NCBI RefSeq assembly: GCF_055900595.2
Contig: NZ_CM148325.1
Strand: one strand, 5' to 3'
Length of the DNA: 64,000 nucleotides
Every line of letters starts with the position of its first letter. The first letter of the stretch is position 1. Of this stretch, positions 334 to 44,037 are shown in pieces. The notes beneath the pieces were generated by a model, which worked only from the letters and a program-made list of their open reading frames with translations, made no database searches and was not told where the DNA came from. The position numbers and the translations under genes are program-made.

Positions 334-347
334 GAACGAAAAAGAGC

Positions 348-943: not shown

Positions 944-992
944 ACAGGGTATTTTCCATAAGTTATTTTATTCTTCCGCCAAGATATAATGA

Positions 993-1013: not shown

Positions 1014-1015
1014 TT

Positions 1016-3718: not shown

Positions 3719-3720
3719 AG

Positions 3721-3924: not shown

Positions 3925-4038
3925 GGTGTTTCCCGCGCGGCGTCAGGTGATGCGGGGATGGTGGCACAGGGGCGGGAAGTGAAGGGAAGGCTTCCGCTTG
4001 TAACTGAGGACAGTACAAGCGGAAGCGATTGGCGAGGG

Positions 4039-4359
4039 CTATGCCTCGTCGCTGTCGGTATTGATGATTTTCAGTTCAGCGGACTTCTGGAGCTGGATCA
4101 GCGCCGGGATCAGAAGCGCGGTAGCCGACAGGCCGTGCCCTAACTGGCACAGGCTTTCAGCGGAGAATTCCAGCACGTTGCTGTCGGCAAAGGAGACGAA
4201 GGTTTTACCCAGAAAATGCAGGCCGTGACATAGCCCGGCATAGCACTCTTCGCTGCTGTTGGCCAGTTGCAGAGTATCGTCGGCGTTCAGGTGTGAAATA
4301 TCCAGCTTGCGGATCGCGTCCGCCAGTTCAGAGGACAGAATATTGGTTTCAGGCACCAT
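4039..4359 (-). CDS. Hypothetical protein, 106 aa, acidic C-terminus
   Basis: Strong SD (GGAGGT, 5-nt spacer) before the ATG at 4359. No family recognised by eye. Last of three small genes in the L-X island. Confidence 0.55.
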   Translation of the reverse strand: MVPETNILSSELADAIRKLDISHLNADDTLQLANSSEECYAGLCHGLHFLGKTFVSFADSNVLEFSAESLCQLGHGLSATALLIPALIQLQKSAELKIINTDSDEA

Positions 4360-4525
4360 GGCGCACCTCCAGCGGTTTGCAGGAGACGAACACCAGCGGG
4401 AAACCCGCCAGCAGGCCGCGAGCCTCTGTCTCTGTTGTCGCCAGTACGGATACCAGACGCAGTGGCTGGATCTCGCGCAGCAGGCGGTTGGAACGGGCGT
4501 TCAGGAAGGTGTAGAGCTTAGGCAT
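4352..4525 (-). CDS. Hypothetical small protein, 57 aa (not in ORF track because <60 aa)
   Basis: Hand translation: MPKLYTFLNARSNRLLREIQPLRLVSVLATTETEARGLLAGFPLVFVSCKPLEVRHGA. SD GGAGGT 4 nt before the ATG at 4525. Overlaps both neighbours by 8 nt. Confidence 0.5.
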
Positions 4526-4694
4526 GGTTCACCTCCTCTACCGGGGTGCTACGTGGGGGATTGAACGACTGAGCGATAACGCTCAGTGCCTGCTTACCTT
4601 CGGGATGCGCAAGACGGTAGTAAGTTAACAGGACTTGCTCCTGTGGGCTGAGATCGTCCCACGTGAGAGTTGTGTTACTATTAGCGGTAGCCAT
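4518..4694 (-). CDS. Hypothetical small protein, 58 aa
   Basis: ATG at 4694 preceded by GAGGT (MATANSNTTLTWDDLSPQEQVLLTYYRLAHPEGK...). The track's longer form starts at 4757 without a good SD. Confidence 0.5.
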   Translation of the reverse strand: MATANSNTTLTWDDLSPQEQVLLTYYRLAHPEGKQALSVIAQSFNPPRSTPVEEVNHA

Positions 4695-4836
4695 AGCATT
4701 ACCTCGATTAATGTTGTGGTTAGATGCCTTGGCAGTGTTCGCGCACTGTCGGGGCATTGTTATTTATGTCATGTGATAGTAATGTGTCATCACACAGTAC
4801 TACATTAACCTGAGTGTGATTTAGGTGTCAATACAC
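4695..4836. promoter_or_regulatory. AT-rich divergent promoter/operator region between the two island operons
   Basis: Inverted repeat TGTGAT...ATCACA (tgtcatgtgatagtaatgtgtcatcacacag) and further GTGTGA copies between the start codons at 4694 (-) and 4837 (+). Confidence 0.45.
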
Positions 4837-5004
4837 ATGAATGAAAGAAGAGGAAATCCTCCGTTTCAGTTTCGACTCGATCCTGAACTGAGAAACGCGA
4901 TGGAAGAAGCTAAAAAGCAAGATGGTGATGAATCACTGGCTGCGTGGATTAAGCGAATTATCAGAAAAGAGCTTCAGTCACGGGGTATAGAACCAAAAGA
5001 TTAG
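4837..5004 (+). CDS. Arc/MetJ-type ribbon-helix-helix DNA-binding protein, 55 aa
   Basis: Hand translation: MNERRGNPPFQFRLDPELRNAMEEAKKQDGDESLAAWIKRIIRKELQSRGIEPKD, matching the RHH pattern F-x-L-R-L-x-x-E-L...SLN/A.I..RL. First gene of the + operon. Confidence 0.55.
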   Translation: MNERRGNPPFQFRLDPELRNAMEEAKKQDGDESLAAWIKRIIRKELQSRGIEPKD

Positions 5005-5050
5005 CAGATAGGTATATACTTTGAATAAAGAGTATTAGAGGTAAAAAATA

Positions 5051-5239
5051 ATGGCGAAGAATAGCAGTCCTGCCAGCCGATACGGTATCAAGGTCGTAAA
5101 AAGAGACAGTATGAGCGGGCAGTTTGTACCCGTCGAAATGAAGCTGGACGGCCCGGAAGGTGAGCGTGTGATTAAAAAGTCGGCAGAGCGTATTTATGCC
5201 AGACACAACAAAGTCATTAAGGCGCTGGCTAACCGATGA
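5051..5239 (+). CDS. Putative antitoxin partner of the Doc toxin (family not recognised; not Phd/YefM-like)
   Basis: 62 aa. SD AGAGGT upstream. Stop overlaps the Doc start (ATGA at 5236-5239), a typical toxin-antitoxin coupling. Confidence 0.5.
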   Translation: MAKNSSPASRYGIKVVKRDSMSGQFVPVEMKLDGPEGERVIKKSAERIYARHNKVIKALANR

Positions 5240-5613
5240 TTGATGCACATTTGGTGATTGGAATTCACGACTTTATTCTTGCTCATGAGCCGGGATTGGT
5301 TGGTTATCAGGATGCTGGCCGGGTCGAGGCAACACTGGCACGGGTGGATAACCGTATTCTGTATGAGCAGATGAATGATATTTTCCAGATCGCCGCATCT
5401 TATGCGGTTGCCATCGCCAGAGGGCACGTTTTTGCTGATGCCAACAAGCGAACGGCACTGGTGACGGCGTTGACATACCTTGATATGCAGGGTGTGAACC
5501 TCAAGCGAACACAAAAGCTGGAAGATATTATGGTGGATGTGGCTGAGGGAACGCTAAATCTGGATGATTTAGCCGATATTTTCTATACCCTTAGTGATGT
5601 AAATGCTTCCTGA
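5236..5613 (+). CDS. doc: Doc (death-on-curing) family toxin, Fic fold
   Basis: 125 aa. Conserved Doc motif HVFADANKRTA (HxFx[DN][AG]NKR). Size and layout parallel P1 Doc. Confidence 0.8.
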   Translation: MIDAHLVIGIHDFILAHEPGLVGYQDAGRVEATLARVDNRILYEQMNDIFQIAASYAVAIARGHVFADANKRTALVTALTYLDMQGVNLKRTQKLEDIMVDVAEGTLNLDDLADIFYTLSDVNAS

Positions 5614-5618
5614 CGTTA

Positions 5619-5643
5619 CAGCCCGACAGATCGGGCTGTTTTT
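5619..5643. terminator. Bidirectional hairpin terminator between the convergent Doc gene and the 78-aa gene
   Basis: cagcccga-caga-tcgggctg followed by TTTTT on + strand; A-run on the other side. Confidence 0.6.
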
Positions 5644-5645
5644 AA

Positions 5646-5882
5646 TTATGCCGCCTCAATACCCGCGTTGGTTAACATATAGTGGCCCCAGTGGTTTTTT
5701 TTCAGGTAACCGGCCAGTTCCATCTGCGTCACAATAAATTCAGCGTTAACCATTTCTATACCTGCGTAGTCGGCCAGATCGCGCAGCGGCCATGTGCTGC
5801 GAACGCCGACGCTAACTATGGTGTCTCTGATGCGGCGAGCGGTATCGGTCATTGGGCGGGTTCTGGCTGCCTGAATAGTCAT
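5646..5882 (-). CDS. Hypothetical protein, 78 aa, possible winged-helix DNA-binding protein
   Basis: ATG at 5882 with SD AGGGGA. Sequence ...LRDLADYAGIEMVNAEFIVTQMELAGYLKK... Lies directly after L on the late strand. Confidence 0.45.
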   Translation of the reverse strand: MTIQAARTRPMTDTARRIRDTIVSVGVRSTWPLRDLADYAGIEMVNAEFIVTQMELAGYLKKNHWGHYMLTNAGIEAA

Positions 5883-5998
5883 GGTATTTTCCCCTGTAGA
5901 TTCTTTCTGTTAGGTCAGACACTAACTCTGGTGGGGAAGGGGCATCCAGCGTTCAGATGAGGCGATACGGTGATGCGCATCGCATATCCGTACTCTTT

Positions 5999-6466
5999 TT
6001 ATACCAGAACAAACGTACTGCGCGGCTTGCCCAGAATATCCCGCACGGCGAAGCGGGCATCGCGCGCCAGATCGTCGGCGGTGCTTTCCTTCTGTTCCGC
6101 CAGTTTGCTGCCGTGGGCGGTGGCATCAAAGTTACGGTAGCGTTCCAGCAGGTTTGCGTGCGTCAGGCTGTACACCGCGTAGCGGTAGCGGTGCAGGTTA
6201 ACGCTTTCGCCGTCCAGCCGTTCGGTAGTAGTTTCCACAATGCCGGTTGTGCCACGGCTTTCCTGCTCCAGCCGCCATTCCCGCAGGTCGTCGTTCACGC
6301 TGGCCAGCGCAATCAGCAGCGCCTCGCGCAGCCGTTCGTTGGTGATGGTGCTGTCCAGCCGTTGGGTTGCACGCAGATGTTGCGTATCGATATTGGGAAA
6401 GAAAGGGTGGTTGCTGATAACCAGCCCCGGCAGACTGGCGGCGGGGGCAACCTGAATAAAGCTCAT
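5999..6466 (-). CDS. Head completion/stabilisation protein (gpL-like)
   Basis: 155 aa from the ATG at 6466 (MSFIQVAPAASLPG...) with SD GGAGA. Position after small terminase M. The track's longer form begins at an upstream alternative start. Confidence 0.7.
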   Translation of the reverse strand: MSFIQVAPAASLPGLVISNHPFFPNIDTQHLRATQRLDSTITNERLREALLIALASVNDDLREWRLEQESRGTTGIVETTTERLDGESVNLHRYRYAVYSLTHANLLERYRNFDATAHGSKLAEQKESTADDLARDARFAVRDILGKPRSTFVLV

Positions 6467-6551
6467 TATATTCTCCCTGTTCGGCGGTGGACGGCGGGCG
6501 TTGCAGTGGTAAAACCACGCGCGGCCAGCCGTGCCGCCGGTCGTGAGGGTC

Positions 6552-7205
6552 TCACTCGGTAGGCTGACTGTTGCGAATTTGTCGCTCCAGTTGCTCAATC
6601 AGCTTTTTCACGCCGACGTTCTCATCCAGTTGTAGCGCGCGCTGGAACTGCGCCAGCGCCTCCTGCGGCTGGCTTTCGCTGTGTGCCAGCCCCAATGCCT
6701 TGTGCAGGCGAGCGCGAACCTGATCCGGCATGTCCTGATCGGCTAACAGCCCGGCAAAGGCCAGCAGGCTGTCCAGCGCCGCAAAGGTACCGGCGGTAAG
6801 CTGTTTCAGGGTGGTGTCGGCGACCTCTTCAGCCACCATGCAGGCGGTCTGCCGCTGGTACTGATCCGGCGTTACCCAGCCGTGTTTCAGGGCGTGTTCC
6901 GCCATGGGGTAGGCAGCGGGAAAGTCGCCGGTATCCAGCGTCCAGAGCAGCACCGTCATAAACACATCGTCCTGCTGTTGGCTGTCGGCAGCCAGAACGC
7001 CGCTTACCCATGGCTGGTAATCGGGCAGCAGTTCACCCTTAACCTCGATTTTGCGTTCAATGGACTGGATCGCTTTCAGGCGGCGTTTATCGGTTGCCAG
7101 CTTTGCCAGCATCAGTTCATAGCCGCTGGCGTAGGTCTGATTTTCCTGTTGATTTGCGGCCTGCGCCTGATAGCGCAGCAGGTGGCGGCGGGCAGGCGTC
7201 ATCAT
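6552..7205 (-). CDS. Terminase small/endonuclease subunit (gpM-like)
   Basis: 217 aa, in the P2 late-operon position between N and L. Confidence 0.65.
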   Translation of the reverse strand: MMTPARRHLLRYQAQAANQQENQTYASGYELMLAKLATDKRRLKAIQSIERKIEVKGELLPDYQPWVSGVLAADSQQQDDVFMTVLLWTLDTGDFPAAYPMAEHALKHGWVTPDQYQRQTACMVAEEVADTTLKQLTAGTFAALDSLLAFAGLLADQDMPDQVRARLHKALGLAHSESQPQEALAQFQRALQLDENVGVKKLIEQLERQIRNSQPTE

Positions 7206-8221
7206 GCGTCTTTATCCTCAAACTTGATGTTTTCAAACAGGCAACCGCAGCCGAAGTCTTCCACCACAAAGGCATCGTTGGAAGACTCGAAGTTCTCTAC
7301 CCGGTCACGTTTGGGGTTATCAATAATGGCGCGGCGGCGGGTGCCTTTCTGGACATAGATAGACAGGTTACTGAAGGCGGTGACCAGAATGGTGTTGTGC
7401 GGGAAACCCGGCACGCGCACGGCAGGGCGACTGCCGATGGTTTTCTGGCTGACCAGAATCTGCCCCGCCAGTTTTTCGCTGTTCTCATTGTGCTGGTTGA
7501 GGATCGGGAAGTATTTGTCGTGCAGGACGCCACGGCCACAAATGGCGACCAGATCTGCGCCGTCGACATGCCATTCGTCAATCAGGTTTTCTTCGCCGTC
7601 ATTGACCATGGCGTCCAGATTCTCATAGTCGCCGCCTTTGCCAATGATGATTTTGCCGGAACCTTCCACACCTTCGTTCATGACGCGTTCCGGGGCGTGA
7701 TCGCGATACTGCTGCAGCCAGCCTTTGTTAACGTCCTGCAGAAGGGGGTAACGCTGGAAGTCGGTCTGGGCTGCAACGAGGATACCGTTGAAGCCAATCA
7801 GGATGCGGTCTAATCCCTGTCGCCGGGTGATGCTGTCGCGCACGCGGATCTGAAAATCTGGGTGGGCGGCCCATGCGTCCAGTTTGGCGTATTTCAGCGC
7901 GGTATCGTAGTTGGTTTTTTCGCAGCGGTAGCGGTTAGTCGTCATTGACGTGGGGTCGACGGGTTCACGTTCACGCTGACTGGTATCGGTACGACTGGCC
8001 GTGGGGCGATCAATGCCGATACCGACTTTTTCACCTTCCTGATCCACCACTTCATGGACGTTGATTTCGGTCAGGAATTCTACGGACGCCTGAATTTTGG
8101 TTTCCAGCGTCTGCTGTACGGAAGGTTCTACCGTGAATTCGACGGCGGCGCTCTGGACACCGGACAGCCCGGCGACGGTTTCAACGTAAGCGTTGTATTT
8201 TAAGCGGGTTTCGTTACGCAT
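7202..8221 (-). CDS. Major capsid protein (gpN-like, P2 family)
   Basis: 339 aa, close to P2 gpN in size, in the position after scaffold O. Confidence 0.75.
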   Translation of the reverse strand: MRNETRLKYNAYVETVAGLSGVQSAAVEFTVEPSVQQTLETKIQASVEFLTEINVHEVVDQEGEKVGIGIDRPTASRTDTSQREREPVDPTSMTTNRYRCEKTNYDTALKYAKLDAWAAHPDFQIRVRDSITRRQGLDRILIGFNGILVAAQTDFQRYPLLQDVNKGWLQQYRDHAPERVMNEGVEGSGKIIIGKGGDYENLDAMVNDGEENLIDEWHVDGADLVAICGRGVLHDKYFPILNQHNENSEKLAGQILVSQKTIGSRPAVRVPGFPHNTILVTAFSNLSIYVQKGTRRRAIIDNPKRDRVENFESSNDAFVVEDFGCGCLFENIKFEDKDA

Positions 8222-8231
8222 CGGGGGTTCC

Positions 8232-9059
8232 TTAACAGTCGGTTTTCAGGTCGGTGTTGCCACCGGTGGCAGGCTGGCGCGGCGGTGTGGCCGGTTGTTT
8301 TGCAAGCTGAGTTTTCAGCGTGGAATAATCGGTCTGTAGCTGCTGATGCTGCGTTTGCAGCTCAGACAGCTCAGCGCGAATTTGGTCGACCTGTTCGCTA
8401 CAGAACGTCGCTACTTCCTCCACCGCCAGATGCACGTCGTCCCGTTGCTGGTCGTCGTGGTTCTGCTTTTTACTTAACAGCGCCTTGATGCGGGTAAACA
8501 GAGATTCGCCGCTGCTTTCCTCCACTTCTTCAAACTCCAGTTCAATCTCTTCTGCCACGCTGAAAATGTTCTCCGGCGAGCGTTTACGCGCCGCCAGCGG
8601 GTTGCTTTGCGCGCTGGCGCAGAAGGAGAGCATTTCGGTGCCGAGGCTGGCCGGATCGTCGGTGACCGCCAGCCCGACCAGATAGGCTTTGCCCGTGTCG
8701 GCAAATTTCGGATTGACTTCCACCGAGGTATAAACCTTCTGCCCTTTGCGGTTCATTTCGACCAGCGAATCCGTTGGGGCCAGACGCGCCAGCAGCGCCA
8801 GTTTGCCTTTCAGGGGACCGTCTTCGGCGATCTCTTCTTTCTTCACCATCGCCACGTCGCCGTAGCGCTGGAACGGGCCGTCCGGCAGGATGCCTTTCAG
8901 GTGCTCCAGATTAATGCGCGCGCCGTACACTTTTGGGCTGTATGTATCGGCCATTTGCTCGATCCACTGGCGTTCAATCGTGCGCTTGTCGCAGGTTGCG
9001 CCTTCTACGGCGATACGCACCCATTTAGAGAGCAGTTTTTTCTTTGGCTTTTTGTCCAT
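8232..9059 (-). CDS. Capsid scaffolding protein (gpO-like)
   Basis: 275 aa with an acidic/coiled-coil C-terminal half. First gene of the O-N-M-L operon, divergent from the terminase. Confidence 0.75.
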   Translation of the reverse strand: MDKKPKKKLLSKWVRIAVEGATCDKRTIERQWIEQMADTYSPKVYGARINLEHLKGILPDGPFQRYGDVAMVKKEEIAEDGPLKGKLALLARLAPTDSLVEMNRKGQKVYTSVEVNPKFADTGKAYLVGLAVTDDPASLGTEMLSFCASAQSNPLAARKRSPENIFSVAEEIELEFEEVEESSGESLFTRIKALLSKKQNHDDQQRDDVHLAVEEVATFCSEQVDQIRAELSELQTQHQQLQTDYSTLKTQLAKQPATPPRQPATGGNTDLKTDC

Positions 9060-9214
9060 AACGTTCAGTCCCGGCGTTGGCTAAATAAGCGAATGGTCGG
9101 GTAGTCCTCCGCTATCAGGCAACGGGCTTCGCTTGTAATCATCCGGGTTACAAGCGGCATTGCTACGCGCAGACAGCGGCTTGTTTACGCTGACGGCAGA
9201 AACGAGAGGACGTT
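9060..9214. promoter_or_regulatory. Divergent late promoter region (P-type and O-type promoters)
   Basis: 155-bp intergenic gap between the divergent terminase (+) and scaffold (-) genes, as in P2, where Ogr-activated late promoters sit. Confidence 0.4.
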
Positions 9215-10999
9215 ATGCCGCCAGACATCGAAAAACATCTGCTTGCCCTTCAGGACGAAGATCCACGCCGTAAAGCCCGCTATCTGTACTGGCAGGGTTT
9301 TCGCATTGCGCGGATCGCTGAACTATTGGGGGTGAAAGTTACCACGCTGCATAGCTGGAAGCGGCGCGATGGCTGGGACGAATCCGCCCCGCTGGAGCGG
9401 GTGACGGCGGTGACCGAAGCGCGGCTGATCCAGCTCACGGTGAAGGAAAATAAGGAGGGAAAGGATTTTAAGGAGATCGACCTGCTCTGGCGGCAGATGG
9501 AGCGCGGGGCAAGGGTTGAACGCTATCAGCAGGGGGGCAATGAGGTCGACCTGAACCCTGCTCTTGCGAAGCGTAACGCCGGGCCGCGCAGACAGCCGGA
9601 AACCAACCATATCAGCGAGGAGCAGGCGGAGAAGCTGAAACAGTTATTTCTGGACGGACTGTATCCGCACCAGAAACACTGGTACCGCGCCGGGCTGGAA
9701 CACCGTATCCGCGATATCAACAAGTCGCGCCAGATTGGGGCGACGATGTTCTTCGGGCGGGAAGGATTTATGGATGCGGTGGAGAGCGGGCGCAACCAGA
9801 TCTTTCTCTCGGCCTCCAAAGCGCAGGCGCACCAGTTCCGCCAGTACATTGTCGATTTTGCTCGTGAGGCGGATGTTGAGCTGAAGGGCGAAGTCATTCA
9901 CTTGCCGCATAATGATAGCCGGATGTATTTTCTCGGCACCAATGCCCGCACCGCCCAGACCTATCATGGCAACCTGTATCTGGATGAATACTTCTGGATA
10001 CACCGCTTTTTGGAACTGCGCCGTAACGCGGCGGGGATGGCCAGCCAGAAACGCTGGCGGCAGACCTACTTTTCCACACCGTCCAGCATTACCCACGAAG
10101 CCTATAAGTTCTGGACAGGGCAACTGTTCAACAAGGGCAGGCCGAAGAGCGAACAGATTCGACTGGATATCAGCCATCGGGCGCTGGCGGCGGGGCGTCT
10201 GTGTGAAGACGGCCAGTGGCGGCAAATCGTCACCGTTGAGGATGCCATCAATCAGGGTTATGACCTGTTCGACCTTGAGCAACTCAGGCTGGAGAACTCG
10301 CCGGAAGAGTTCGCCAACCTGTTTATGTGCCAGTTTATCGACGATACCGCATCGGTATTCCCACTAAGCATGTTGCAGGGTTGCATGGTCGATAGCTGGG
10401 AAGTCTGGGACGACTACAAGCCGTTTGCCCTGCGTCCGCTCGGCGAACGCTCGGTGTGGGTGGGGTACGATCCCGCATTAAGCGGTGACAGCGCCGGGTG
10501 CGTGATGGTCGCGCCGCCGGTCATTGAGGGCGGCAAGTTTCGGGTAATTGAAAAGCACCAGTGGCACGGGATGGACTTCGCGGCGCAGGCGGAAAATATC
10601 CGCAAAATTACCGAGCGCTATAACGTGACTTACATCGGTATTGACGTGACCGGCATCGGCCACGGCGTGCATCAACTGGTGAAACAGTTCTTCCCGGCAG
10701 TGCAGGCATTCTCTTATTCCCCAGAAGTGAAACAGCGTCTGGTGCTGAAAACGCTGGACGTTGTCCGTAAACGCCGACTGGAGTTTGACGCCGGATGGAC
10801 GGATCTGGCGCAGGCGTTTATGGCAATTCGCAAAACCCTGACTCCGTCCGGGCGTCAGGTGACCTTCGAGGCCAGCCGTTCGGAAGAAGTCTCCCACGCG
10901 GATCTGGCATGGGCGTGTATGCACGCCATTATCAATGAACCACTGGAAAGCTCCGGCGGCGCGAACAGCGGGCGGGGCTTAATTAAGGTGTACGGATGA
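9215..10999 (+). CDS. Terminase large (ATPase) subunit (gpP-like)
   Basis: 594 aa, similar to P2 gpP in size. N-terminal HTH-like region; Walker-A-like KSRQIGATMF. Confidence 0.75.
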   Translation: MPPDIEKHLLALQDEDPRRKARYLYWQGFRIARIAELLGVKVTTLHSWKRRDGWDESAPLERVTAVTEARLIQLTVKENKEGKDFKEIDLLWRQMERGARVERYQQGGNEVDLNPALAKRNAGPRRQPETNHISEEQAEKLKQLFLDGLYPHQKHWYRAGLEHRIRDINKSRQIGATMFFGREGFMDAVESGRNQIFLSASKAQAHQFRQYIVDFAREADVELKGEVIHLPHNDSRMYFLGTNARTAQTYHGNLYLDEYFWIHRFLELRRNAAGMASQKRWRQTYFSTPSSITHEAYKFWTGQLFNKGRPKSEQIRLDISHRALAAGRLCEDGQWRQIVTVEDAINQGYDLFDLEQLRLENSPEEFANLFMCQFIDDTASVFPLSMLQGCMVDSWEVWDDYKPFALRPLGERSVWVGYDPALSGDSAGCVMVAPPVIEGGKFRVIEKHQWHGMDFAAQAENIRKITERYNVTYIGIDVTGIGHGVHQLVKQFFPAVQAFSYSPEVKQRLVLKTLDVVRKRRLEFDAGWTDLAQAFMAIRKTLTPSGRQVTFEASRSEEVSHADLAWACMHAIINEPLESSGGANSGRGLIKVYG

Positions 11000-11976
11000 A
11001 TAACTCAATGGCTTTCACCTTCGGTGAACCTGAAGCCCTGCTGGACAGGCGGGAAATACTGAACTATCTGGAGTGCGTGGACTTTGGCAAATGGTATGCG
11101 CCGCCGGTGGATTTTAATTCGCTGGCGCTGTCGTTCCGCGCTTCGGCGCATCATACCAGCCCGATCTGCGTGAAGCGCAACGTGCTGGTTGGTACCTTCA
11201 TACCTCATCCGTTGTTGACCCGGCAGGCGTTCAGCCGCCTTGCGCTGGACTATCTGGTATTCGGCAATGCCTATCTGGAGCGGCAGGATAACCGGCTGGG
11301 CCAGCCGTTAACGCTGGTGCCTGCGCTGGCGAAGTATGTCCGGCGCGGCAAGGCGCTGGACAGCTATTTCTTTGTTCAGCCCGGTAAAGTGGATCATGAG
11401 TTTGCGTCGGGCAGTATCGGCCACCTGCTGGAGCCGGATATCAATCAGGAAATCTACGGCCTGTCGGAATACCTCTCTGCGCTGAACGCGGCATGGCTGG
11501 ATAACTCCGCCACGCTGTTTCGCCGTCGTTACTACAAGAACGGCAGTCATGCCGGTTTCATCCTCTACCTGAGCGACCCGGCCCACAACGAGGCGGATAT
11601 TGGGGCGTTACAGGAAGCGCTAGCGAACAGCCGTGGCCCCGGCAACTTCCGCAATCTGCTGATGTATCTGCCGAACGGCAAGCCAGACAGCGTAAAGGTT
11701 ATCCCGATTGGCGAGGTGGCGGCGAAAGATAACTTCTCCGATATCAAGAGTGTCAGCCGTGACGACCAGTTAGCTGCGCACCGGGTACCACCTGCGCTCA
11801 TGGGCGTGGTACCGAGTAACGCCGGTGGCTTTGGTGATGCCATCAAAGCGGCGAAGGTATTCAACTGCAATGAGATCGAGCCGCTACAGGAACGGTTCAA
11901 GGAGCTGAACGACTGGCTGGGGCTGGAGGTTATTCGCTTCAAAAAGTACCGCCTTGCCGACGACGATTCAGAGTAA
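10996..11976 (+). CDS. Portal vertex protein (gpQ-like)
   Basis: 326 aa, translationally coupled to the terminase (ATGA overlap); position as in P2 Q. Confidence 0.65.
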   Translation: MNNSMAFTFGEPEALLDRREILNYLECVDFGKWYAPPVDFNSLALSFRASAHHTSPICVKRNVLVGTFIPHPLLTRQAFSRLALDYLVFGNAYLERQDNRLGQPLTLVPALAKYVRRGKALDSYFFVQPGKVDHEFASGSIGHLLEPDINQEIYGLSEYLSALNAAWLDNSATLFRRRYYKNGSHAGFILYLSDPAHNEADIGALQEALANSRGPGNFRNLLMYLPNGKPDSVKVIPIGEVAAKDNFSDIKSVSRDDQLAAHRVPPALMGVVPSNAGGFGDAIKAAKVFNCNEIEPLQERFKELNDWLGLEVIRFKKYRLADDDSE

Positions 11977-12021
11977 CCCCACCAACGACCAGCTCACTAT
12001 CAGAGCCACCATGCGCCATTC

Positions 12022-12046
12022 AGCCCGCTTCCTGCGGGCTTTTTTA
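12022..12046 (+). terminator. Rho-independent terminator after the portal gene
   Basis: agcccgc-ttcct-gcgggct followed by TTTTTT. Confidence 0.65.
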
Positions 12047-12295
12047 CGCCTTCTCACCGCCAGAATCCCCGGTCAGCACCGCCAGCGCGCGGTTGTGACC
12101 CCGCCACGCCTGCGCAGTAAATAGATCGCTTTTTTTGCACTGGTGCGTAAGCGTCGGAGCGGGCCATAACGGGAGGGCGTGGTCGGGTTGCAGTTGCAGC
12201 AGAATCATGCGGATTTATACGCCCTGTGTATGCGCCAGAGACGATCGGGAGGGCAATGCCACGATCCTTTCGGTATTTTTGGATCGCCTGTCGGG

Positions 12296-12581
12296 AAAAG
12301 GTAACCTCAGTAATTAGCAGTAAAAATAATGCTTATTCTATTGTTTATAAAAGAGAAATTTGGTTACCCCTAAAAGGTAATCTGAGGTAACCCAAAAGGT
12401 AACCTGTTTTATATTTTCATATAAATCATGATGTTACAAATTAGAAGACATCACTATTATAAAAGGTAACCTGATTACGCTTTGGTTACCAAAAGATTAC
12501 CTTTCTCTGTTTTTGAAAAATCCTTTTTATTCATTAAGTTATTTTGATTTTTCGTTGCAGGTTACTAAGGTTACCTTTTTC
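12296..12581. repeat. Array of about 9-10 copies of (A)AAAGGTAAYC in both orientations; candidate protein-binding sites
   Basis: Direct copies near 12296, 12372, 12385, 12394, 12461; inverted copies near 12362, 12484, 12497, 12560, 12570. AT-rich; no ORF of 60 aa or more. Confidence 0.6.
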
Positions 12582-12850
12582 CGAAGTCCCCACGGACTTT
12601 GGTATATATAGATAGGTTAAAAAGTAGCCGTTATGTTTGCCAGCTATTTACTTCCCATTCTTCCACTGGCCAGCATGTTAATATGCCCGGTAATGATAAC
12701 TAGTTGCCATTGGGTTACTTTCTTCTGTGGACGGTAAAACTGACGGTAAATTGGGTTGTGGGTCTCGATTTAGATTAGTAAAATCAAGTGATTAAGTCGA
12801 CTGTAGATAATCGAGTGGGAATGATTTGATCCCTGCACTATGAATTAGCA

Positions 12851-12880
12851 AAACCCTCTGTTACTACAGAGGGTTTTTTA
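12851..12880 (-). terminator. Hairpin terminator downstream of yfgI (bidirectional shape)
   Basis: aaaccctctg-ttacta-cagagggttt flanked by T/A runs. Confidence 0.6.
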
Positions 12881-13472: not shown

Positions 13473-13991
13473 TTAGCTCTTTTCAGGACATTTGGTATTT
13501 GGCTGAATACGCGTTTCGTTATACGTCGTGGTAATAACAACGGCTAAACCTGTCGTAAACTGGCACTCTTTACCCACCTGGGTGGAGGTATACACTTTGG
13601 TGCCTTCCTTATACGTTAGAGAAACACCTTCCACTAAGGTTTTATCATTCACCATAGAACCTGCTGCCGCGCCAACAGCTCCGCCGCCAACTGCACCTGC
13701 CGTCGTTCCGGAATTGCTGCCAGACCCCACGTTGTGGCCGATAACACCGCCAGCGACTGCACCAATAAGCGCGCCGAAGGCTTGTGCGTTTCGTTTATTT
13801 TGGGAGTTGTCTACGGCAACTTTTGCGGGAAGAATGGAAATAATATTAACGGTTTTAGTTTCTTGTTTGGTATTCAGTTGATCGGTTTGATAAACATCGG
13901 CGGCATGATCATCAGCATTTGACTGGCATCCTGCCAGAGTGAATGACGCTAACATTGCCACAGGCAGAAGACATTTTTTAAATTTCATCAC
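13473..13991 (-). CDS. yfgH: YfgH, outer-membrane lipoprotein (glycine-zipper)
   Basis: 172 aa with lipobox LAGC; GxxxG-rich segment. Confidence 0.85.
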   Translation of the reverse strand: MMKFKKCLLPVAMLASFTLAGCQSNADDHAADVYQTDQLNTKQETKTVNIISILPAKVAVDNSQNKRNAQAFGALIGAVAGGVIGHNVGSGSNSGTTAGAVGGGAVGAAAGSMVNDKTLVEGVSLTYKEGTKVYTSTQVGKECQFTTGLAVVITTTYNETRIQPNTKCPEKS

Positions 13992-14301: not shown

Positions 14302-14493
14302 CTAACGTTGTACCGGTGATTCGACGGAGAGTGTGGATTGTTGAGCTTCTTTTTTGCTCTGATGGTGCTGCCAGGCACCGACGGACGAGTAGATAAAGCG
14401 GCCAAAGAAGAAGATAAAGCTGATGAGCAGTACGATACGGGTCATGCGACTGTTAAATCGGTGTCGTTTTCGCATACTGGTTGCCTGACTCAC
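14302..14493 (-). CDS. yfgG: YfgG, small membrane protein
   Basis: 63 aa, one TM helix; position between yfgH and pdeF. Confidence 0.75.
   Translation of the reverse strand: MSQATSMRKRHRFNSRMTRIVLLISFIFFFGRFIYSSVGAWQHHQSKKEAQQSTLSVESPVQR

Positions 14494-21548: not shown

Positions 21549-21549
<1 letters not shown>
20911..21549 (-). CDS. purN: Phosphoribosylglycinamide formyltransferase
   Basis: 212 aa (MNIVVLISGNGSNLQAIIDA...), downstream of purM. Confidence 0.95.
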
Positions 21550-22604
<1,055 letters not shown>

Positions 22605-23622: not shown

Positions 23623-24912
23623 ATGACGCGCCGTGCTATCGGGGTGAGTGAAAGACCGCCACTTTTACAGACAATCCCGCTTAGTTTGCAACATTTGTTC
23701 GCCATGTTTGGTGCAACCGTCTTGGTGCCCGTCTTATTTCATATTAACCCGGCGACTGTACTGTTATTTAACGGTATAGGAACGCTGCTGTATCTCTTCA
23801 TCTGTAAAGGGAAAATCCCGGCTTATCTTGGTTCCAGCTTTGCCTTTATTTCACCGGTATTGTTACTGTTGCCGTTAGGGTATGAAGTCGCGCTGGGCGG
23901 CTTTATTATGTGCGGCGTGCTGTTCTGCCTGGTTTCTTTTATCGTGAAGAAAGCGGGGACCGGCTGGCTGGACGTGCTGTTTCCACCTGCGGCAATGGGC
24001 GCAATCGTTGCCGTCATCGGTCTGGAGTTGGCGGGCGTAGCTGCCGGTATGGCAGGTTTACTCCCGGCTGAAGGGCAAACGCCAGACTCCAAAACCATCA
24101 TCATCTCCATTACCACGCTGGCAGTCACGGTTTTAGGTTCCGTGCTGTTTCGTGGTTTCCTGGCAATTATCCCGATTTTAATTGGCGTGCTGGTGGGCTA
24201 CGCGCTCTCTTTCGCAATGGGAATTGTCGATACCACGCCGATTATTAATGCTCACTGGTTTGCGCTGCCAACTCTCTATACGCCGCGCTTCGAGTGGTTT
24301 GCCATTCTGACTATTCTGCCAGCGGCGTTAGTGGTTATTGCCGAACACGTAGGGCACCTGGTAGTAACGGCTAATATCGTCAAAAAAGATCTGCTGCGCG
24401 ATCCAGGTCTGCACCGTTCGATGTTTGCTAACGGCTTGTCGACCGTGATCTCCGGCTTCTTTGGCTCCACGCCAAACACCACCTACGGGGAAAACATTGG
24501 CGTGATGGCGATCACCCGTGTTTACAGTACCTGGGTTATCGGCGGGGCGGCGATTTTCGCTATCCTGCTTTCCTGCGTCGGTAAACTGGCTGCTGCTATC
24601 CAGATGATCCCATTGCCGGTGATGGGCGGCGTTTCGCTGCTGCTTTATGGTGTTATCGGTGCTTCCGGTATTCGTGTTTTGATCGAATCGAAAGTGGATT
24701 ACAACAAAGCACAGAACCTGATCCTGACTTCCGTGATTTTGATCATCGGTGTCAGTGGCGCGAAGGTAAACATCGGCGCGGCGGAGCTGAAAGGTATGGC
24801 GCTGGCGACCATCGTCGGTATCGGCTTAAGTTTGATCTTCAAACTGATTAGTGTGCTGCGACCTGAAGAAGTGGTGCTGGACGCAGAAGACGCGGATATA
24901 ACAGACAAATAA
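23623..24912 (+). CDS. uraA: Uracil:H+ symporter
   Basis: 429 aa from ATG at 23623 ([16 protein letters not shown]...); polytopic membrane protein. Confidence 0.95.
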
Positions 24913-25006
24913 TGTACCGACCGGGCAGTGTTGCTGCCCGGTTCAAACATCATGGGATTCTGTGGTAAACTTCTCGCGATTTTGTGAAATCCTGGTTGAG
25001 GTATCT

Positions 25007-25708
25007 CTGAACACACCGGCACAGCTCTCTTTGCCACTTTATCTTCCTGACGACGAAACCTTTGCAAGTTTCTGGCCGGGGGATAACTCCTCTTTACTGG
25101 CCGCGCTGCAAAACGTGCTGCGTCAGGAACATAGCGGTTACATCTATCTCTGGGCACGCGAAGGCGCGGGGCGCAGCCATCTGCTGCACGCGGCTTGCGC
25201 GGAATTGTCGCAGCGTGGCGATGCGGTGGGCTATGTCCCGCTGGATAAACGCACCTGGTTTGTTCCGGAAGTGCTCGACGGTATGGAGCATTTGTCGCTG
25301 GTCTGTATCGACAACATTGAGTGTATTGCAGGCGATGAGTTGTGGGAGATGGCGATTTTCGATCTCTACAATCGAATTCTGGAATCGGGTAAAACACGGT
25401 TGTTAATCACCGGCGATCGTCCACCGCGGCAGTTGAATCTGGGATTACCGGATCTCGCGTCGCGACTCGACTGGGGGCAGATCTACAAATTGCAGCCTCT
25501 TTCTGATGAAGATAAGTTGCAGGCGCTACAGTTACGCGCGCGTTTGCGTGGTTTTGAACTGCCGGAAGATGTGGGGCGTTTCTTGCTGAAGCGGCTCGAC
25601 AGAGAGATGCGCACGTTATTTATGACGTTGGATCAGTTGGATCGTGCGTCGATTACCGCGCAACGTAAGCTGACCATTCCGTTTGTGAAAGAAATTCTGA
25701 AACTGTAG
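25007..25708 (+). CDS. hda: DnaA-inactivating protein Hda (RIDA)
   Basis: 233 aa if initiated at the CTG at 25007 (.[18 protein letters not shown]...); the track's ORF starts at 24962. Confidence 0.85.
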
Positions 25709-25744
25709 ACAAGACGTTTATTGTCGGATATGCACCCATAGTAT

Positions 25745-25792
25745 TCGTCGGCCGGATAAGACGCGGCAAGCGTCGCATCCGGCAATGTGCTT
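25745..25792. repeat. REP (repetitive extragenic palindrome) element
   Basis: gccggataagacgcggcaagcgtcgcatccggca type sequence between hda and arsC. Confidence 0.7.
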
Positions 25793-25813
25793 CAACTAGC
25801 GATGGAGCACTTA

Positions 25814-26173
25814 TTAACCCACGATTTCCAGCACCTGCTCCGGTGGACGACCAATTCGCGCTTTGCCATTCGCGACCACAATCGGGCGCTCCATTAGCTT
25901 CGGATTATCCACCATTGCCTGAATCAGCGCCTCTTCGCTAAGCGAACTGTCAGCCAGGTTCAGTTCTTTATAAAGATCCTCTTTCTGGCGCATCAATTCA
26001 CGAGCGCTATTCATTCCCAGCATTTTCAGCAAATCGCGCAGCGTTGCCGCATCGGCGGGTGTCTCAAGGTAGAGCACCACTTCTGGCTCCACGCCGTTTT
26101 CTTTCAGCAGGTTCAGCGTTTCCCGGCTCTTTGAACAGCGTGGGTTATGGTAGATTTTTACCTGTTTGGTCAT
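25814..26173 (-). CDS. arsC: Arsenate reductase-like protein (ArsC/Spx family, YfgD)
   Basis: 119 aa with the N-terminal Cys motif (YHNPRCSKSR). Confidence 0.85.
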   Translation of the reverse strand: MTKQVKIYHNPRCSKSRETLNLLKENGVEPEVVLYLETPADAATLRDLLKMLGMNSARELMRQKEDLYKELNLADSSLSEEALIQAMVDNPKLMERPIVVANGKARIGRPPEQVLEIVG

Positions 26174-26193
26174 TGTTCTTCCTTTAATGCGAA

Positions 26194-27657
26194 TTACATC
26201 TTGGTATAAGGCTTAAAGCGTTCTTGCAGCTGGCGCAACTGGTCGATGCGCGCATCGTAACGCGCTTGTTGCAGGCTGCCTAATTTCACCTGAGAACTGG
26301 CGCTACTCAACAAGGAAATGGCCTGATCGAGTCGCCCGGCGAGCGCATAACCTTCTGCTCGCGCAGCCAGTTCCTGATCGCGGTTATTTAGTGCGGCTTC
26401 CGCCTGTGCCAGTAAATCCCAGCCGTTGCTGTCATCTTTATTGTTAAAAGTGTAGCGATTCAGAATATTGGCCGCTTCCTGTGGTTGCCCCCCTTGCAGA
26501 TAAGCGTTCGCCAGGTTGAGCTGCAACACCGGATTGGTGCGCAAATCGCGGGCATTTTTCAGGCGATTGATAGCGTCATTGGCTTTGTTTTGCCCAAGAT
26601 CGATATCGGTAGCCAGATCGAGATACCATGCGTTGCCAGGTTCTGCCGCCAGTAACGGTTGCAGCGTTTTACGCGCTTCGTCGTATTTATTGGCTTCCAT
26701 CGCCTGTAAAGCACGACCATATTGCGCCGCTCGTTGCTGACGAACGTTTCCTTTCGCCCATTCATCCAGCAAATCACTGGTGAGCTGATTACGTCCGGAA
26801 TTATACATCCCCAGTGTGCGCGCTTTCGCCAGATAGAAATCCTCCGACGACTGCACCACCATCGGGCGCATCTGATTAGCACGGTTGCGGGCATCTGCCA
26901 GACGACTTTCCGGCAACGGGTGAGTCAATAAAATTTCCGGCGGACGCGAGGAGTAACGCGCCTGATCGAGCAATTTTTCGAGGAAGGTTGGCATCGCCTG
27001 CGGATCGAATCCTGAGCGTTGCAGCACCTGAATACCAATGCGGTCCGCTTCCTGTTCATTTTGCTGGGTGAAACTGATCATACCCTGGCGCGTTCCCGCC
27101 AGCGTACCGGTTAGCGCCGCCATCCCTGCTTGTGGACTGGCCATCGCCAGTAAAATAGAACCTAACGCCCCGACCCAGGTCAGTGGTGCGCTGCGCTGCT
27201 GATCTTCCATCGCTCGCGCCAGGTGACGTTGGGTGACGTGGGAGATTTCGTGCGCCATAACTGAAGCCAGTTGACTTTCGTTATCGGAATAACGGAACAG
27301 GGCAGAGTGCAGCACCACGTTGCCGCCAAAGAAAGCAAAGGCGTTAATTTCGTCGTTGTTGATCAGAAAGAAATGAAACGGTGTCTTAACCGAATTGGCA
27401 TGCGAAACCAGACGCATCCCCAGCGAATTAATATATTGCGTTAACAGCGGGTCATTAATTAACGGCGCGCTGCCGCGTAGCTGGCGGACATAATAGTCGC
27501 CCATCTGCATTTCCTGGCCAATGGAAAGCGTGCTTCCTGCGGAGGTTCCCATATCCGGCAAGGTGTCTGCGCTGTCGGCAAACGCCGGGGCTACCTGACC
27601 AATGGTCATAGCAGCAATGAGGGTTGCAACCAGGTTTTTTTTCAACTGCCTGAACAT
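26194..27657 (-). CDS. bepA: Periplasmic beta-barrel assembly-enhancing protease BepA (M48 metalloprotease with TPR repeats)
   Basis: 487 aa with signal peptide, HEISH zinc motif and C-terminal TPR-like repeats. Confidence 0.95.
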
Positions 27658-33595: not shown

Positions 33596-35311
33596 TTACT
33601 TCAGCGGCGAACGGTTACGATCAATGCCGTAGCGTTCGATCTCTTTATACGGCACGGTTTTTGACTGGCGCTTGCGCACATCAACCAGCGTCACACGGTC
33701 GGTACAGGAGTAGCAGGGATCAAGGCTACCGATAATCAGCGGTGCGTCAGAAACGGTATTGCCGCGCAGCATGTAACGCAGCACTGGCCAGTTGGCGTAG
33801 GTGGCGGCACGACAGCGCCAGCGGAACAATTTTTGGTTATTACCGAGCATGCTCCAGTGCACGTCTTCACCGCGTGGCGCTTCAACAAAGCCCAGCGCGA
33901 ATGCGTGAGGTTTATAGCTAAAGCCTTCGGTCAGCAGTGGGGTATCCGGCATGTTGTCGAGGGCAAATTCCAGCATTGCCAGCGAATCAAACGTCTCTTT
34001 GACACGGACCATCACGCGGGAGAAGACATCGCCGCCGGTAAAGGTAAACAGCGTTTTTGGAATATTGCCGTAGTCGGCGTAGGGGTGATCAAAGCGCAAA
34101 TCACGGGCAAAACCACTGCCACGGATCAGCGGCCCTACGGGGCTATAATCACGGGCGATTTGTCGGTCGAGAATGCCAATGCCCTGAGTGCGTTGTTCCA
34201 TATTCGGCGTGGCAAGCAGCATCTCTACCAGCTCCGACACGTCGGCGCGCATCTCGCGCACCAGTTTCATCGTTTGCAGACGTTGCTCTTTGAGAATATC
34301 GCGGCGAACACCACCAATCAGATTCAGACCGTAGGTTTTACGCGACCCGGTCAGCAATTCCGCCATCGTCATCGACTTTTCCCGCACGCGGAAAAATTGC
34401 ATAAAACCGGTATCAAAACCAACAAAATGGCAGGAGAGGCCAAGATTGAGCAAATGACTGTGCAGCCGTTCGACTTCCAGCAGAATCGAACGAATGGTAT
34501 GCGCTCGTTGTGGCACCTCAATCCCCAGTGCATTTTCAACCGAGTTGGTATAGGCCACACTGTGGGCAAAACCGCAAATCCCGCACACGCGGTCCGACAA
34601 GAAGGTCACTTCGTTGTAGCCCATCCGCGTTTCTGCCAGTTTCTCCATGCCGCGATGGACATAAAACAGGCGGTAATCAGCATCGACAATTTGCTCGCCA
34701 TCCACAAACAAGCGGAAGTGACCTGGTTCATCGGAGGTGATATGCAGCGGGCCAACAGGGATCACCCGCGCATCGCTGTTGCCCTCGTTGATAAACGGAT
34801 ACGTTTCGGTATCAGTCGTCGGTTCAGGGCGCAGTCGATAATCCATCGCGTCTTTGCGCAGCGGATGCATATCTTCCGGCCAGTCATCGGGCAACACCAG
34901 GCGACGCTGATCCGGCAGGCCAACCGGAATCAGCCCGTACATATCGCGAATTTCTCGCTCGCCCCAGACCGCGGCAGGGACGCGCGGTGTGACTGACGGA
35001 AACTCCCGACTGTCGGCATCGACCAGTGCCTTCACCACGATCCAGCATTTTTCGGCCCCTTCCATTGAAAGGGCATAATAAACCGCGTAATGACCGTTAA
35101 GTGTCCGCTCGTCGTTGCCAAACAGGACCGGAAGCCAGCCATCATGTTGATAATAAAGATAATGTACAACGTCAGGCAGCAGATTTATTTTCACCGTAAT
35201 GGTGACCTGTTCAGGCGTTTGTCGCTCTTCATCCAGCACCGCGCCGGGGAACTGCGTTTTCAGGGCGGCGAGAATCGCTTCGCCACGATTTGACGATGAA
35301 TTAACGTTCAC
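33596..35311 (-). CDS. hyfG: Hydrogenase-4 large (NiFe) subunit
   Basis: Start assigned to the GTG at 35311 with SD GGAGAAA ([14 protein letters not shown]...). Overlaps the hyfF stop. The exact start is uncertain. Confidence 0.85.
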
Positions 35312-36881
35312 TGTGTTTCTCCGAAACAGATGCGGTGCCTGAAGGCAAAAAATCATGCCAGGTGCTACGTTGTGCAGGCAGGTCGTGCGTCCCTGAGAGG
35401 ACTATAGTGGAAGCGCCCGCCAGGATCCTGATGACAGGTTGTGGAATATGCGTTCCCATCGCCAGCATCATGACCAGCAGAATCACCATTGGCGAGGTGG
35501 TCAACCAGCCAAGTTCACCCCGGTTAACGGCCTGCGGCGGTTTCGCCATTAATACCCGCGCAGCCATCCGTACCAGGCCCGCCAGCACCAGCGTTAACAG
35601 CAATAACAGCAGGACGATAATCAACAGGTGATTACGAGCCAGTCCGGCGGTAACGGTCATAAATTCGCTAAGAAAAATGTTGAAGGGCGGCATCCCGGCC
35701 AGCGCCAGCGCACCGCCGCCAAACAGCACGGCGGTAAATGGCATGATTTTGAGCATTCCGCAGACGACGTTGAGATCGCGCGTGCCGTACTTGAGCAGTA
35801 CATTGCCGGAACCGCAGAACAGCAGCGTTTTTGCCAGACTGTGGTTTAAGGTGTGCAGCAGCGCAGCAAAAATTCCCAGCGGCCCGCCAATGCCTAGCGC
35901 CACCGCGACCAGTCCCATGTTCTCCACGCTGGAGTACGCCAGCAGACGCTTAATGTCCCGCTGTACCAGAATGAAAAATGCCGCCACGGCAACCGACAAC
36001 ATGCCGAAGATGAGCAACAACCGGTTGGGGAAATCGCTGCCGATGGCCTGGCAAATAATGATGTAATAGCGAATCAGCACCAACAGCGCGCAGTTCAGCA
36101 ATACGGCGGAGAGCAGGGCGCTGACCGGACTCGGCGCTTCACTGTGAGCATCCGGCAGCCAGGCGTGCATGGGAAATAGCCCGGTTTTGGTGCCAAAGCC
36201 AATTAGCACAAACACAAAGGCCAACAGCATTAATGTTGGGTCAAGCAAGGACGATTGCTTAAGAACCTCGCTCCAGAATATCGCCATTTCTGCCTGCGGC
36301 ATAACGCTGGCGGCGTTGGCGTATACCAGCACGGTACCGAACAGACCAAAAGCGACACCAACAGTACAAATAATGATGTACTTCCATGCAGCTTCCAGAG
36401 ATGAACGCTGACCGTAAATGCCTACCAGAAACGCCGAGCTTAAGGTGGTGGCTTCGATTGCCGCCCACATCACAATCAGGTTATTGCTGGTAACAACCAG
36501 CAGCATGGTGAACAAAAACAGATGGAAGAAACCGTAGTAATCGCACAGCGTAACGGGTGAAAGCTCGCCGTGAGCCACTTCATGACGCATGTAGCCAATC
36601 GAGTAAACACCGGTGAGAAAGCCAATCACACCAAGAATGGCGAGGAACAAACCGCCCAGACCATCAATATGAAGCCACAGTCCCGCAGCGAATATTTCTC
36701 CCGCATCAGCGGCAGTTTGGACCACCCACAGTGCCAGAATCAGCAGCAGTGTGATCCCTAAGCTATGTAGTACTGTCACCGTGCGAGTCGCAGAGTATCC
36801 CCGTTTCCGGCAGGCAAAACAGAGCAGCGAAAAAAGCAGCGGCGTGAGCAGGAGTAAAGCGAACATCACAGAATAACTCAT
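35301..36881 (-). CDS. hyfF: Hydrogenase-4 membrane subunit F (NuoN/L antiporter-like)
   Basis: 526 aa polytopic membrane protein. Confidence 0.9.
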
Positions 36882-42849: not shown

Positions 42850-43320
42850 TCAGGCGTGTTCTTTCAGCCAGTTCAGCACAACGTCGTGGTGATTGCTGGT
42901 TTTGAAATCGTCAAAGACATGTTCGATTTTGCCATCAGCGTCAATCAGGAAGCTGATGCGATGAATACCATCGTAGGTTTTGCCCATGAAGGACTTTTCA
43001 CCCCAGACGCCGAATTGTTCGCACACCTGGTGGTCCTCATCAGACAGGAGCGTAAAGTTAAGCAGCTCTTTTTCCGCAAAACGGGAGAGTTTTTCGGGTT
43101 TATCGGTGCTGATACCCAGCACATCAACGCCCGCTTTTTTCAATTCATCCATGTTATCGCGTAAGCCGCAGGCCTGTACGGTACAGCCGGGAGTCATGGC
43201 TTTTGGGTAAAAATAAACCAGAACACGCTGTCCCTGGAAGTCGGTCAAATTAACTTGTTCTCCGTCTTGATCCGGCAAGCTAAATTTCGGTGCGATATCA
43301 CCGGCTTTCAGTGGATTCAT
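42850..43320 (-). CDS. bcp: Thiol peroxidase Bcp (peroxiredoxin Q family)
   Basis: 156 aa with the peroxiredoxin active-site motif TPGCT. Confidence 0.95.
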   Translation of the reverse strand: MNPLKAGDIAPKFSLPDQDGEQVNLTDFQGQRVLVYFYPKAMTPGCTVQACGLRDNMDELKKAGVDVLGISTDKPEKLSRFAEKELLNFTLLSDEDHQVCEQFGVWGEKSFMGKTYDGIHRISFLIDADGKIEHVFDDFKTSNHHDVVLNWLKEHA

Positions 43321-43892
43321 TACTTAACTCCATCCTGTTCATCATGTGGGGAATAATTGACGACGTTTATACTGCCTTGTGCATTGAGTTCTGTACATAG
43401 GGCTTTAAACGCTTGCTCAATATTTGCTGCATCCGCAGAGGCGGGGCTGTGGGCGGTGATCTGAATATGCAACTGTGCAGCCCGTTCATTTTCAGCAGGT
43501 TGCGTGCGCGATACCAGCTCCGCAATGTTCATGTGGTGCGCGTCGAAAAGTGCCGTGAAGCGTTCAATTAAATGCGGGGAGTCTGCCACATCGACCTGAA
43601 CCCAGACAGATGCTGGCATTGGCGGACGCGGACGAGCCGTCGTGCGCTTCATCACGATTAAAAGATCCAGTTCGGCACCTTTCAACGGTAACGTTGATTC
43701 AATCAGAGTAATGGCATTCCATGAACCGGAAAGCAGCATGATAAACGTGAACTCTTCTCCCAGCATCGCCAGGCGACTGTCTTCAATATTACAGCCGCAA
43801 CTACTGACATGACGGGTGATGGTGTTCACAATTCCAGGGCGATCGGCACCCAACGCAGTGATCACCAGATAATGTTGCGATGACAGTGTCAA
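43320..43892 (-). CDS. gcvR: Glycine cleavage system transcriptional repressor GcvR
   Basis: 190 aa if initiated at the TTG at 43892 (SD AAGGAA 8 nt upstream; MTLSSQHYLVITALGADRPGIV...); two ACT-like domains. Confidence 0.85.
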   Translation of the reverse strand: MTLSSQHYLVITALGADRPGIVNTITRHVSSCGCNIEDSRLAMLGEEFTFIMLLSGSWNAITLIESTLPLKGAELDLLIVMKRTTARPRPPMPASVWVQVDVADSPHLIERFTALFDAHHMNIAELVSRTQPAENERAAQLHIQITAHSPASADAANIEQAFKALCTELNAQGSINVVNYSPHDEQDGVK

Positions 43893-44037
43893 ACTGGTTA
43901 TTCCTTTAAGGGGTGAGTTGTTCTTAAGGAAAGCATAAAAAAAACATGCATACAACAATCAGAACGGTTCTGTCTGCTTGCTTTTAATGCCATACCAAAC
44001 GTACCATTGAGACACTTGTTTGCACAGAGGATGGCCC

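Follow-up and report, generated by a model that had tools for sequence, protein, structure and literature searches.

Genomic setting and positions of the start sites

The window, a stretch of 64,000 nucleotides from contig NZ_CM148325.1 (assembly GCF_055900595.2), is a segment of the Escherichia coli chromosome. Positions 24000-26500 are 100% identical to several sequenced strains, positions 12869-46501 match NZ_CP098223 at 99.96% identity, and positions 13784-63818 align in reverse orientation to K-12 MG1655 at 96.6-97.3% DNA identity, where the gene order is narQ-acrD-...-purC-bamC-dapA-gcvR-bcp-hyfABCDEFGHIJR-focB-...-hda-uraA-upp-purMN-ppk-ppx. The remaining left part (1-12868) is common to neither K-12 nor NZ_CP098223. 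Its best E. coli matches are P2-family prophage genes (terminase, portal, capsid, scaffold) together with DUF262 and abortive-infection cargo genes, and only 3 of 5,426 genomes cover at least 80% of it. The one Rfam family scoring above its gathering score in the window is naRNA4, a REP-derived nucleoid-associated RNA, at 50740-50816 on the minus strand (89 bits).

Five genes of this segment were proposed by the initial annotation to begin at non-ATG codons, namely hda at CTG, gcvR at TTG, and purM, narQ and hyfG at GTG. The curated K-12 RefSeq entry has the same five codons, and the PGAP annotation of the 99.96%-identical strain places the same start codons in all five genes. The initiation codons, the Shine-Dalgarno (SD) sequences with their SD:anti-SD duplex energies, and the coding sequences are as follows:

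25007-25009, plus strand: hda CTG initiation codon (sequence; K-12 RefSeq start; PGAP start)
24998-25002, plus strand: hda SD, GAGGT, 4 nt before the CTG (-6.9 kcal/mol)
25007-25708, plus strand: hda coding sequence, 233 aa (its first residue is where the PDB 5x06 construct starts)
43890-43892, minus strand: gcvR TTG initiation codon (K-12 RefSeq; periodicity boundary at the codon)
43901-43906, minus strand: gcvR SD, AAGGAA, 8-nt spacer (-5.6 kcal/mol; AGGAA conserved)
43320-43892, minus strand: gcvR coding sequence, 190 aa (sequence; K-12 RefSeq)
22584-22586, minus strand: purM GTG initiation codon (K-12 RefSeq; residue 1 of PDB 1cli maps there)
22595-22599, minus strand: purM SD, GGGGA, GGAGA in other genera (-5.5 kcal/mol; conserved)
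21549-22586, minus strand: purM coding sequence, 345 aa (K-12 RefSeq; PGAP)
58053-58055, minus strand: narQ GTG initiation codon, the 3' GUG of GUGUGA (K-12 RefSeq; PGAP; residue 1 of PDB 5iji maps there)
58065-58068, minus strand: narQ SD, GGAG (-6.4 kcal/mol; GGAG also listed for narQ in PMC9841429)
56355-58055, minus strand: narQ coding sequence, 566 aa (K-12 RefSeq; PGAP)
35309-35311, minus strand: hyfG GTG initiation codon, 11 nt inside the 3' end of hyfF (K-12 RefSeq; PGAP)
35318-35322, minus strand: hyfG SD, GGAGA (-6.6 kcal/mol)
33596-35311, minus strand: hyfG coding sequence, 571 aa (PGAP; 555 aa in K-12)

The N-termini of a plain open reading frame (ORF) track had been described as too long, and in all five genes the longest ORF indeed exceeds the accepted protein: 248 aa from GTG 24962 against 233 aa from CTG 25007 in hda, 212 aa from TTG 43958 against 190 aa in gcvR, 350 aa from GTG 22601 against 345 aa in purM, 571 aa from GTG 58070 against 566 aa in narQ, and 586 aa from ATG 35356 against 571 aa in hyfG. 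The worked example of gcvR, a minus-strand TTG at 43892 with AAGGAA upstream, holds in both its elements. The expected protein lengths are recovered for hda, gcvR, purM and narQ; for hyfG the GTG is correct, but the product has 571 aa rather than the 555 aa of K-12, because the K-12 protein carries an internal 16-aa in-frame deletion that is unrelated to the start. This deletion of 48 bp in the K-12 gene for the hydrogenase-4 large subunit corresponds to window positions 34109-34156 (minus strand), which encode 16 residues between two ARD repeats, present here and in the paralogue HycE and absent from K-12.

SD:anti-SD duplex energies were computed for all plausible in-frame start candidates of the five genes. 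The proposed codons, which lie 4-9 nt downstream of the SD with spacers of 3-8 nt, have energies of -5.5 to -6.9 kcal/mol, and the other in-frame candidates range from +1.5 to -4.2 kcal/mol. The SD at the proposed codon is the strongest among the in-frame candidates in every one of the five genes, in agreement with the plausible SD that had been noted for each.

Comparative and published evidence for the starts

A genome scan with Hda yielded 80 Enterobacteriaceae species loci with 10-kb flanks, among which purM was present in 71, gcvR in 56 and hyfG in 7. The codon for residue 1 is invariant across these loci: in hda it is always CTG (80/80), in purM GTG (71/71) and in gcvR TTG (56/56). As a control in the same species, all internal Val codons of purM vary synonymously, and so do all internal Leu codons up to codon 50 in hda and gcvR. 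MAFFT alignments of positions -90 to +90 place the onset of third-position variability exactly at the proposed codon in hda, purM and gcvR. Downstream of it, none of the three genes has a gap column, and the three codon positions are conserved at 0.94/0.99/0.81 (hda), 0.99/0.99/0.79 (purM) and 0.95/0.98/0.66 (gcvR); upstream, no codon periodicity is seen, and all indels fall here (35 gap columns in hda, 68 in purM and 13 in gcvR).

Further evidence differs from gene to gene. For purM, the GTG is kept in 72/72 sequences, and the entries listed from the supplement of a 2026 N-terminomics study (TRAINSPOTTER) include N-terminal peptides such as TDKTSLSYK..., which correspond to the annotated GTG and are backed by Ribo-RET (PMC13245402). 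The gcvR start is TTG in all species compared (n = about 55-56), and the GcvR homologue of Vibrio cholerae (PDB 1u8s) begins within 2 residues of the proposed GcvR start. Upstream of gcvR lies a conserved block (TTGTTGTATGC...TATGCT; TTGTTGTATGC...TTTTTTTTATGCTTTCC) that holds both TTG codons of the long ORF and, judged by its conservation, looks like the gcvR promoter. The UUG start of gcvR was reportedly established by Ghrist and Stauffer in 1998; a literature search for a gcvR UUG or TTG start returned nothing useful, and the primary paper on it lay outside that search. In hyfG, the 11-nt overlap between the end of hyfF and the GTG is that of a typical operon junction, and HycE (PDB 7z0s) has its N-terminus aligned no more than 3 residues from the proposed HyfG start. 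Cross-species support is weaker here, as it comes from seven loci of other genera, in which a GTG preceded by GGGAGAG lies 4 codons earlier in the alignment. For gcvR, hyfG and narQ, the literature search found no direct evidence at the protein level or from Ribo-seq, and the rows listed from the TRAINSPOTTER supplement and from that of tetracycline-inhibited ribosome profiling (TetRP) contain no entries for these three genes.

These data bear on the alternative that the reference proteins are too short and that translation begins at the codons opening the longest frames. Such codons are canonical start codons, and the 248-aa form of hda was used in the 2006 K-12 annotation and is still produced in bulk by automated callers. 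They have, however, a weak SD or none (0 to -4.0 kcal/mol), and the extensions that they open contain indels, lack codon periodicity and are interrupted by in-frame stops in most species. Furthermore, the upstream GTG of purM is GCG or TTG in 5 species, that of narQ is not conserved, being absent from the orthologous contigs, and published initiation data sit at the shorter forms. Weak SD sequences, aperiodic extensions and published initiation sites thus largely refute the longest-ORF starts, which we regard as very improbable.

Translation almost certainly begins at the near-cognate codons, that is CUG in hda, UUG in gcvR and GUG in purM, narQ and hyfG, each led by an SD. The five starts are supported by SD strength, cross-species invariance, the codon-periodicity boundary, the constructs of solved structures, and published Ribo-seq, N-terminomics and reporter data. 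All five were already recorded by reference annotation and published work, so that they add nothing new in themselves; the mildly new points are comparative only and concern the invariance of the hda CUG, the putative promoter location of the GTG opening the long hda ORF, and the probable mis-annotation of a 235-aa Hda. The practical weight lies mostly in annotation hygiene, with published experimental support available for three of the five starts.

The CUG start of hda and its upstream region

The codons that follow the CTG at 25007-25009 are AAC ACA CCG GCA CAG, the N-terminus of Hda, and Hda in PDB 5x06 starts as M-NTPAQ after the tag. Read from 25007, the window protein shows no mismatch, over the aligned positions, to the part of chain 5x06_E that is E. 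coli Hda. Compared with K-12, the gene, codon, SD and N-terminus are the same and the start context GAGGTATCT-CTG-AAC is identical; the strain differs, with 97% DNA identity in the region, and nothing else of substance does. An in-frame CTG by itself says little, because the long hda ORF has two of them in its first 16 codons; what supports the one at 25007 is the SD, together with conservation and experiments. When three more distant Enterobacterales (Yersinia, Erwinia and Proteus) were added to the comparison, the start CTG was found in 84/84 Enterobacterales hda sequences, and the SD GAGGT was likewise kept in 84/84, including those of the three added genera, where it precedes the CTG. According to EcoGene 3.0, which cites Su'etsugu et al. 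(2008, J Biol Chem 283:36118), hda was the first gene of the E. coli chromosome to have a CTG start, yfjD being the second (PMC3531124). The annotated start of the gene was shifted by 45 nt from 2006 to 2014, and TetRP revealed on manual inspection a "signal at 2014 initiation site", which is the CTG (PMC4909307, Table S3); the automated caller of that study missed the CTG, which was found by manual inspection only (PMC4909307).

Some gene callers place the start of hda downstream instead, at TTG 25031, which would yield a protein of 225 aa (MPLYLPDDE...). Forms of this length are present in public gene calls (P0157, P0198, P0200), and as a start codon TTG is superior to CTG. Against this, TTG 25031 has no SD (-1.7 kcal/mol), and 40/84 species have CTG or TTA in its place. 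Moreover, a start there would remove some of the clamp-binding motif QLSLPL (Hda residues 6-11), and Hda residues 2-8 are conserved with synonymous variation and are therefore translated. The conservation of these residues, together with the structure of the Hda-clamp complex, refutes this start and leaves it with next to no probability, and the CTG at 25007 stands as the start of hda.

The start codon that opens the longest hda frame falls within a conserved motif:

24962-24971, plus strand: rejected longest-ORF hda start (GTG 24962-24964), overlapping a TGnTAAACT motif (24963-24971), an extended -10-like putative promoter element

Upstream of hda, 83/84 sequences carry a motif TGnTAnAnT; 42-48 nt separate it from the CTG, and its NTG shares the hda frame in only 13/83. 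An in-frame stop lies within 14 codons upstream of the CTG in 55/84 sequences, and no canonical upstream start is common to more than 10/84. From its conservation, TGnTAAACT can be read as an extended -10 promoter element just downstream of a terminator-like hairpin of uraA, and the GTG of the long ORF is probably part of the hda promoter. A consensus promoter and terminator scan around hda, gcvR and purM returned no promoter for these genes; its only match, which was in the purM region, belongs to the other strand.

The hairpin, which is GC-rich (CCGGGCAG-tgttg-CTGCCCGG), spans window positions 24921-24941 on the plus strand; it follows the uraA stop immediately and is closely followed in turn by the conserved -10-like motif. 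Its 3' arm (GCCCGGTT) is conserved across genera, and the terminator scan passed over it because it has no T-run. In several Citrobacter species and in S. enterica subsp. arizonae (L007-L017, L005), an in-frame ATG without an SD lies 8 codons (24 nt) upstream of the hda CTG (ttttATGaaatcctgggttgaggtatctCTG); E. coli has an out-of-frame GTG at this site, because of a 1-nt indel.

The initial annotation had further held that automatic annotation commonly mis-calls starts of this kind. For hda this can be demonstrated: no cluster in automated metagenome calls is larger than that of the 248-aa form starting at GTG, which has 3,510 members, and Hda lengths in automated calls across Enterobacterales include 225, 235, 238, 241, 244, 248, 258 aa and more. 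Among the five genes, hda is the only one for which the claim is demonstrable; PGAP is right on all five, and the automated calls for narQ are right as well. Callers that disallow CTG starts emit the 248-aa Hda, which places 15 spurious residues at the N-terminus directly before the clamp-binding motif. The hda genes of Yersinia, Erwinia and Proteus (L089, L090, L091, positions 295-312) carry GAGGTGCTTCTGAA, and their publicly annotated 235-aa start is a GTG contained in the SD (GAGGTG), with the conserved CTG lying two codons further downstream. The 235-aa Hda of these three genera is probably a mis-annotation of the CTG start.

Across 84 species, the hda start is never AUG, GUG or UUG, although one substitution would suffice to give a stronger start and internal Leu codons switch freely. 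This invariance of the CUG throughout a bacterial order fits selection for very low translation of Hda. In a joint reading of the comparative data, purifying selection would hold the identity of the CUG, which could act as a dosage limiter or as an IF3-sensitive control point for this inactivator of DnaA, the 235-aa GTG form of Hda in Yersinia, Erwinia, Proteus and relatives would be a systematic mis-annotation of this CUG start, and the GTG of the longest ORF would belong to a conserved extended -10 promoter. We offer this combination tentatively, as one that falls a little short of being probable.

Overlapping starts at narQ and initiation at near-cognate codons

The narQ start lies in an ambiguous context, which the initial annotation, naming only a GTG, had left unmentioned:

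58052-58057, minus strand: narQ GUGUGA ambiguous initiation site, in which an out-of-frame 5' GUG followed by UGA (start-stop) overlaps the real start

In a 2022 study with luciferase reporters, the 3' GUG of GUGUGA was identified as the narQ start and the out-of-frame 5' GUG, placed directly before UGA, as its competitor (PMC9841429). Reporter expression of narQ depends on A at +4 and on termination-reinitiation, and a "distinct" GUG raises reporter output 7-8-fold (PMC9841429). The window context is identical to this published site, with GGAG-N9-GUGUGA and A at +4. As narQ falls outside the 10-kb flanks of the hda-centred loci, it was reached through protein homologues and their contigs. NarQ homologues of 51-95% identity have predicted N-termini of the form M/L-[ITL]-VKR-[PS]-V at the same position, the orthologues start there with M/V/L-[ITL]-VKR, and on six contigs the orthologue start codon is GTG in four (the 89% and 63% identity classes) and TTG in two (about 52%). 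Unlike E. coli narQ, the orthologues outside Escherichia have no GUGUG. In the 63%-identity orthologues (L084, at about 395-405, and L085), the sequence just upstream of narQ is gATGAGTGACC, in which an ATG lies out of frame and overlapping with the GTG start; the ORF that begins at this ATG has 4 codons and stops at TAA. This ATG/GTG overlap may be another version of the ambiguous-start arrangement of the E. coli GUGUGA.

Closely spaced starts raise the question of dual initiation, in which at least one of the genes would make two N-terminal proteoforms, one from the near-cognate codon and one from a nearby in-frame alternative. Candidates are the GTG codons 5 codons upstream in purM or narQ and, in other Enterobacterales, the GTG within GAGGTG two codons upstream of the hda CTG. 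Nearby alternative starts are common in E. coli (118/806 initiation sites in TRAINSPOTTER), narQ is experimentally ambiguous between its two overlapping GUGs, and the hda genes of Yersinia, Erwinia and Proteus carry GAGGTGCTTCTG. Conversely, the competing 5' GUG of narQ is out of frame (PMC9841429), the TetRP signal of hda lies at the CTG site only, and both purM entries among the TRAINSPOTTER rows listed are at the annotated GTG. The alternative codons also lie inside or beside the SD, which leaves no usable spacing, and E. coli hda has GTA rather than GTG at position -2. Dual initiation is accordingly unlikely in these genes, and a minor use of the in-frame GTGs 5 codons upstream in purM and narQ, both within the SD region, may occur.

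For initiation at the near-cognate codons themselves, we propose that the 30S subunit would be positioned through SD:anti-SD pairing and that the codon would then be read by fMet-tRNA, such that the protein begins with Met. The longer six-frame ORFs almost certainly represent an open frame that happens to run back into untranslated or promoter DNA or, for hyfG, into hyfF. Low expression may be set by the weak codons; at narQ the competing out-of-frame GUG-UGA start-stop lowers output (PMC9841429). A role of the codons in low expression fits both their reporter output, which relative to AUG is 1-2% for CUG and 10-100% for GUG and UUG (bioRxiv 10.1101/063800), and the fact that Hda, GcvR and NarQ are low-abundance regulators.

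Known cases bear a resemblance to this arrangement. In infC and pcnB (AUU) and in yfjD (CUG), as in the genes described here, a weak start codon is combined with an SD in genes for low-abundance or autoregulated proteins, and the AUU of infC serves as the sensor for IF3 autoregulation. We know of no infC-type regulatory loop for hda. As for the ordinary GUG and UUG starts of E. coli, purM, hyfG and gcvR are plain examples of an SD with a near-cognate codon and show no difference from them.

The number of non-ATG starts in the window is itself unremarkable. Genome-wide, E. coli uses AUG, GUG and UUG at 83, 14 and 3%, corresponding to 17% non-ATG starts (bioRxiv 10.1101/063800). Among the 41 complete coding sequences of the K-12 segment, six have a non-ATG start (narQ, gcvR, hyfG, hda, purM and yfgG), for which the binomial probability of at least six is 0.77 at an assumed background of 18%. 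An excess in the window is therefore rejected, 6/41 being average, and among the start codons found here only CTG is rare as a class. Two further annotated GTG starts, absent from the initial annotation, are those of yfgH (13473-13991, minus strand), which lies at the edge of the K-12 segment, and of yfgG (about 14302-14493, minus strand).
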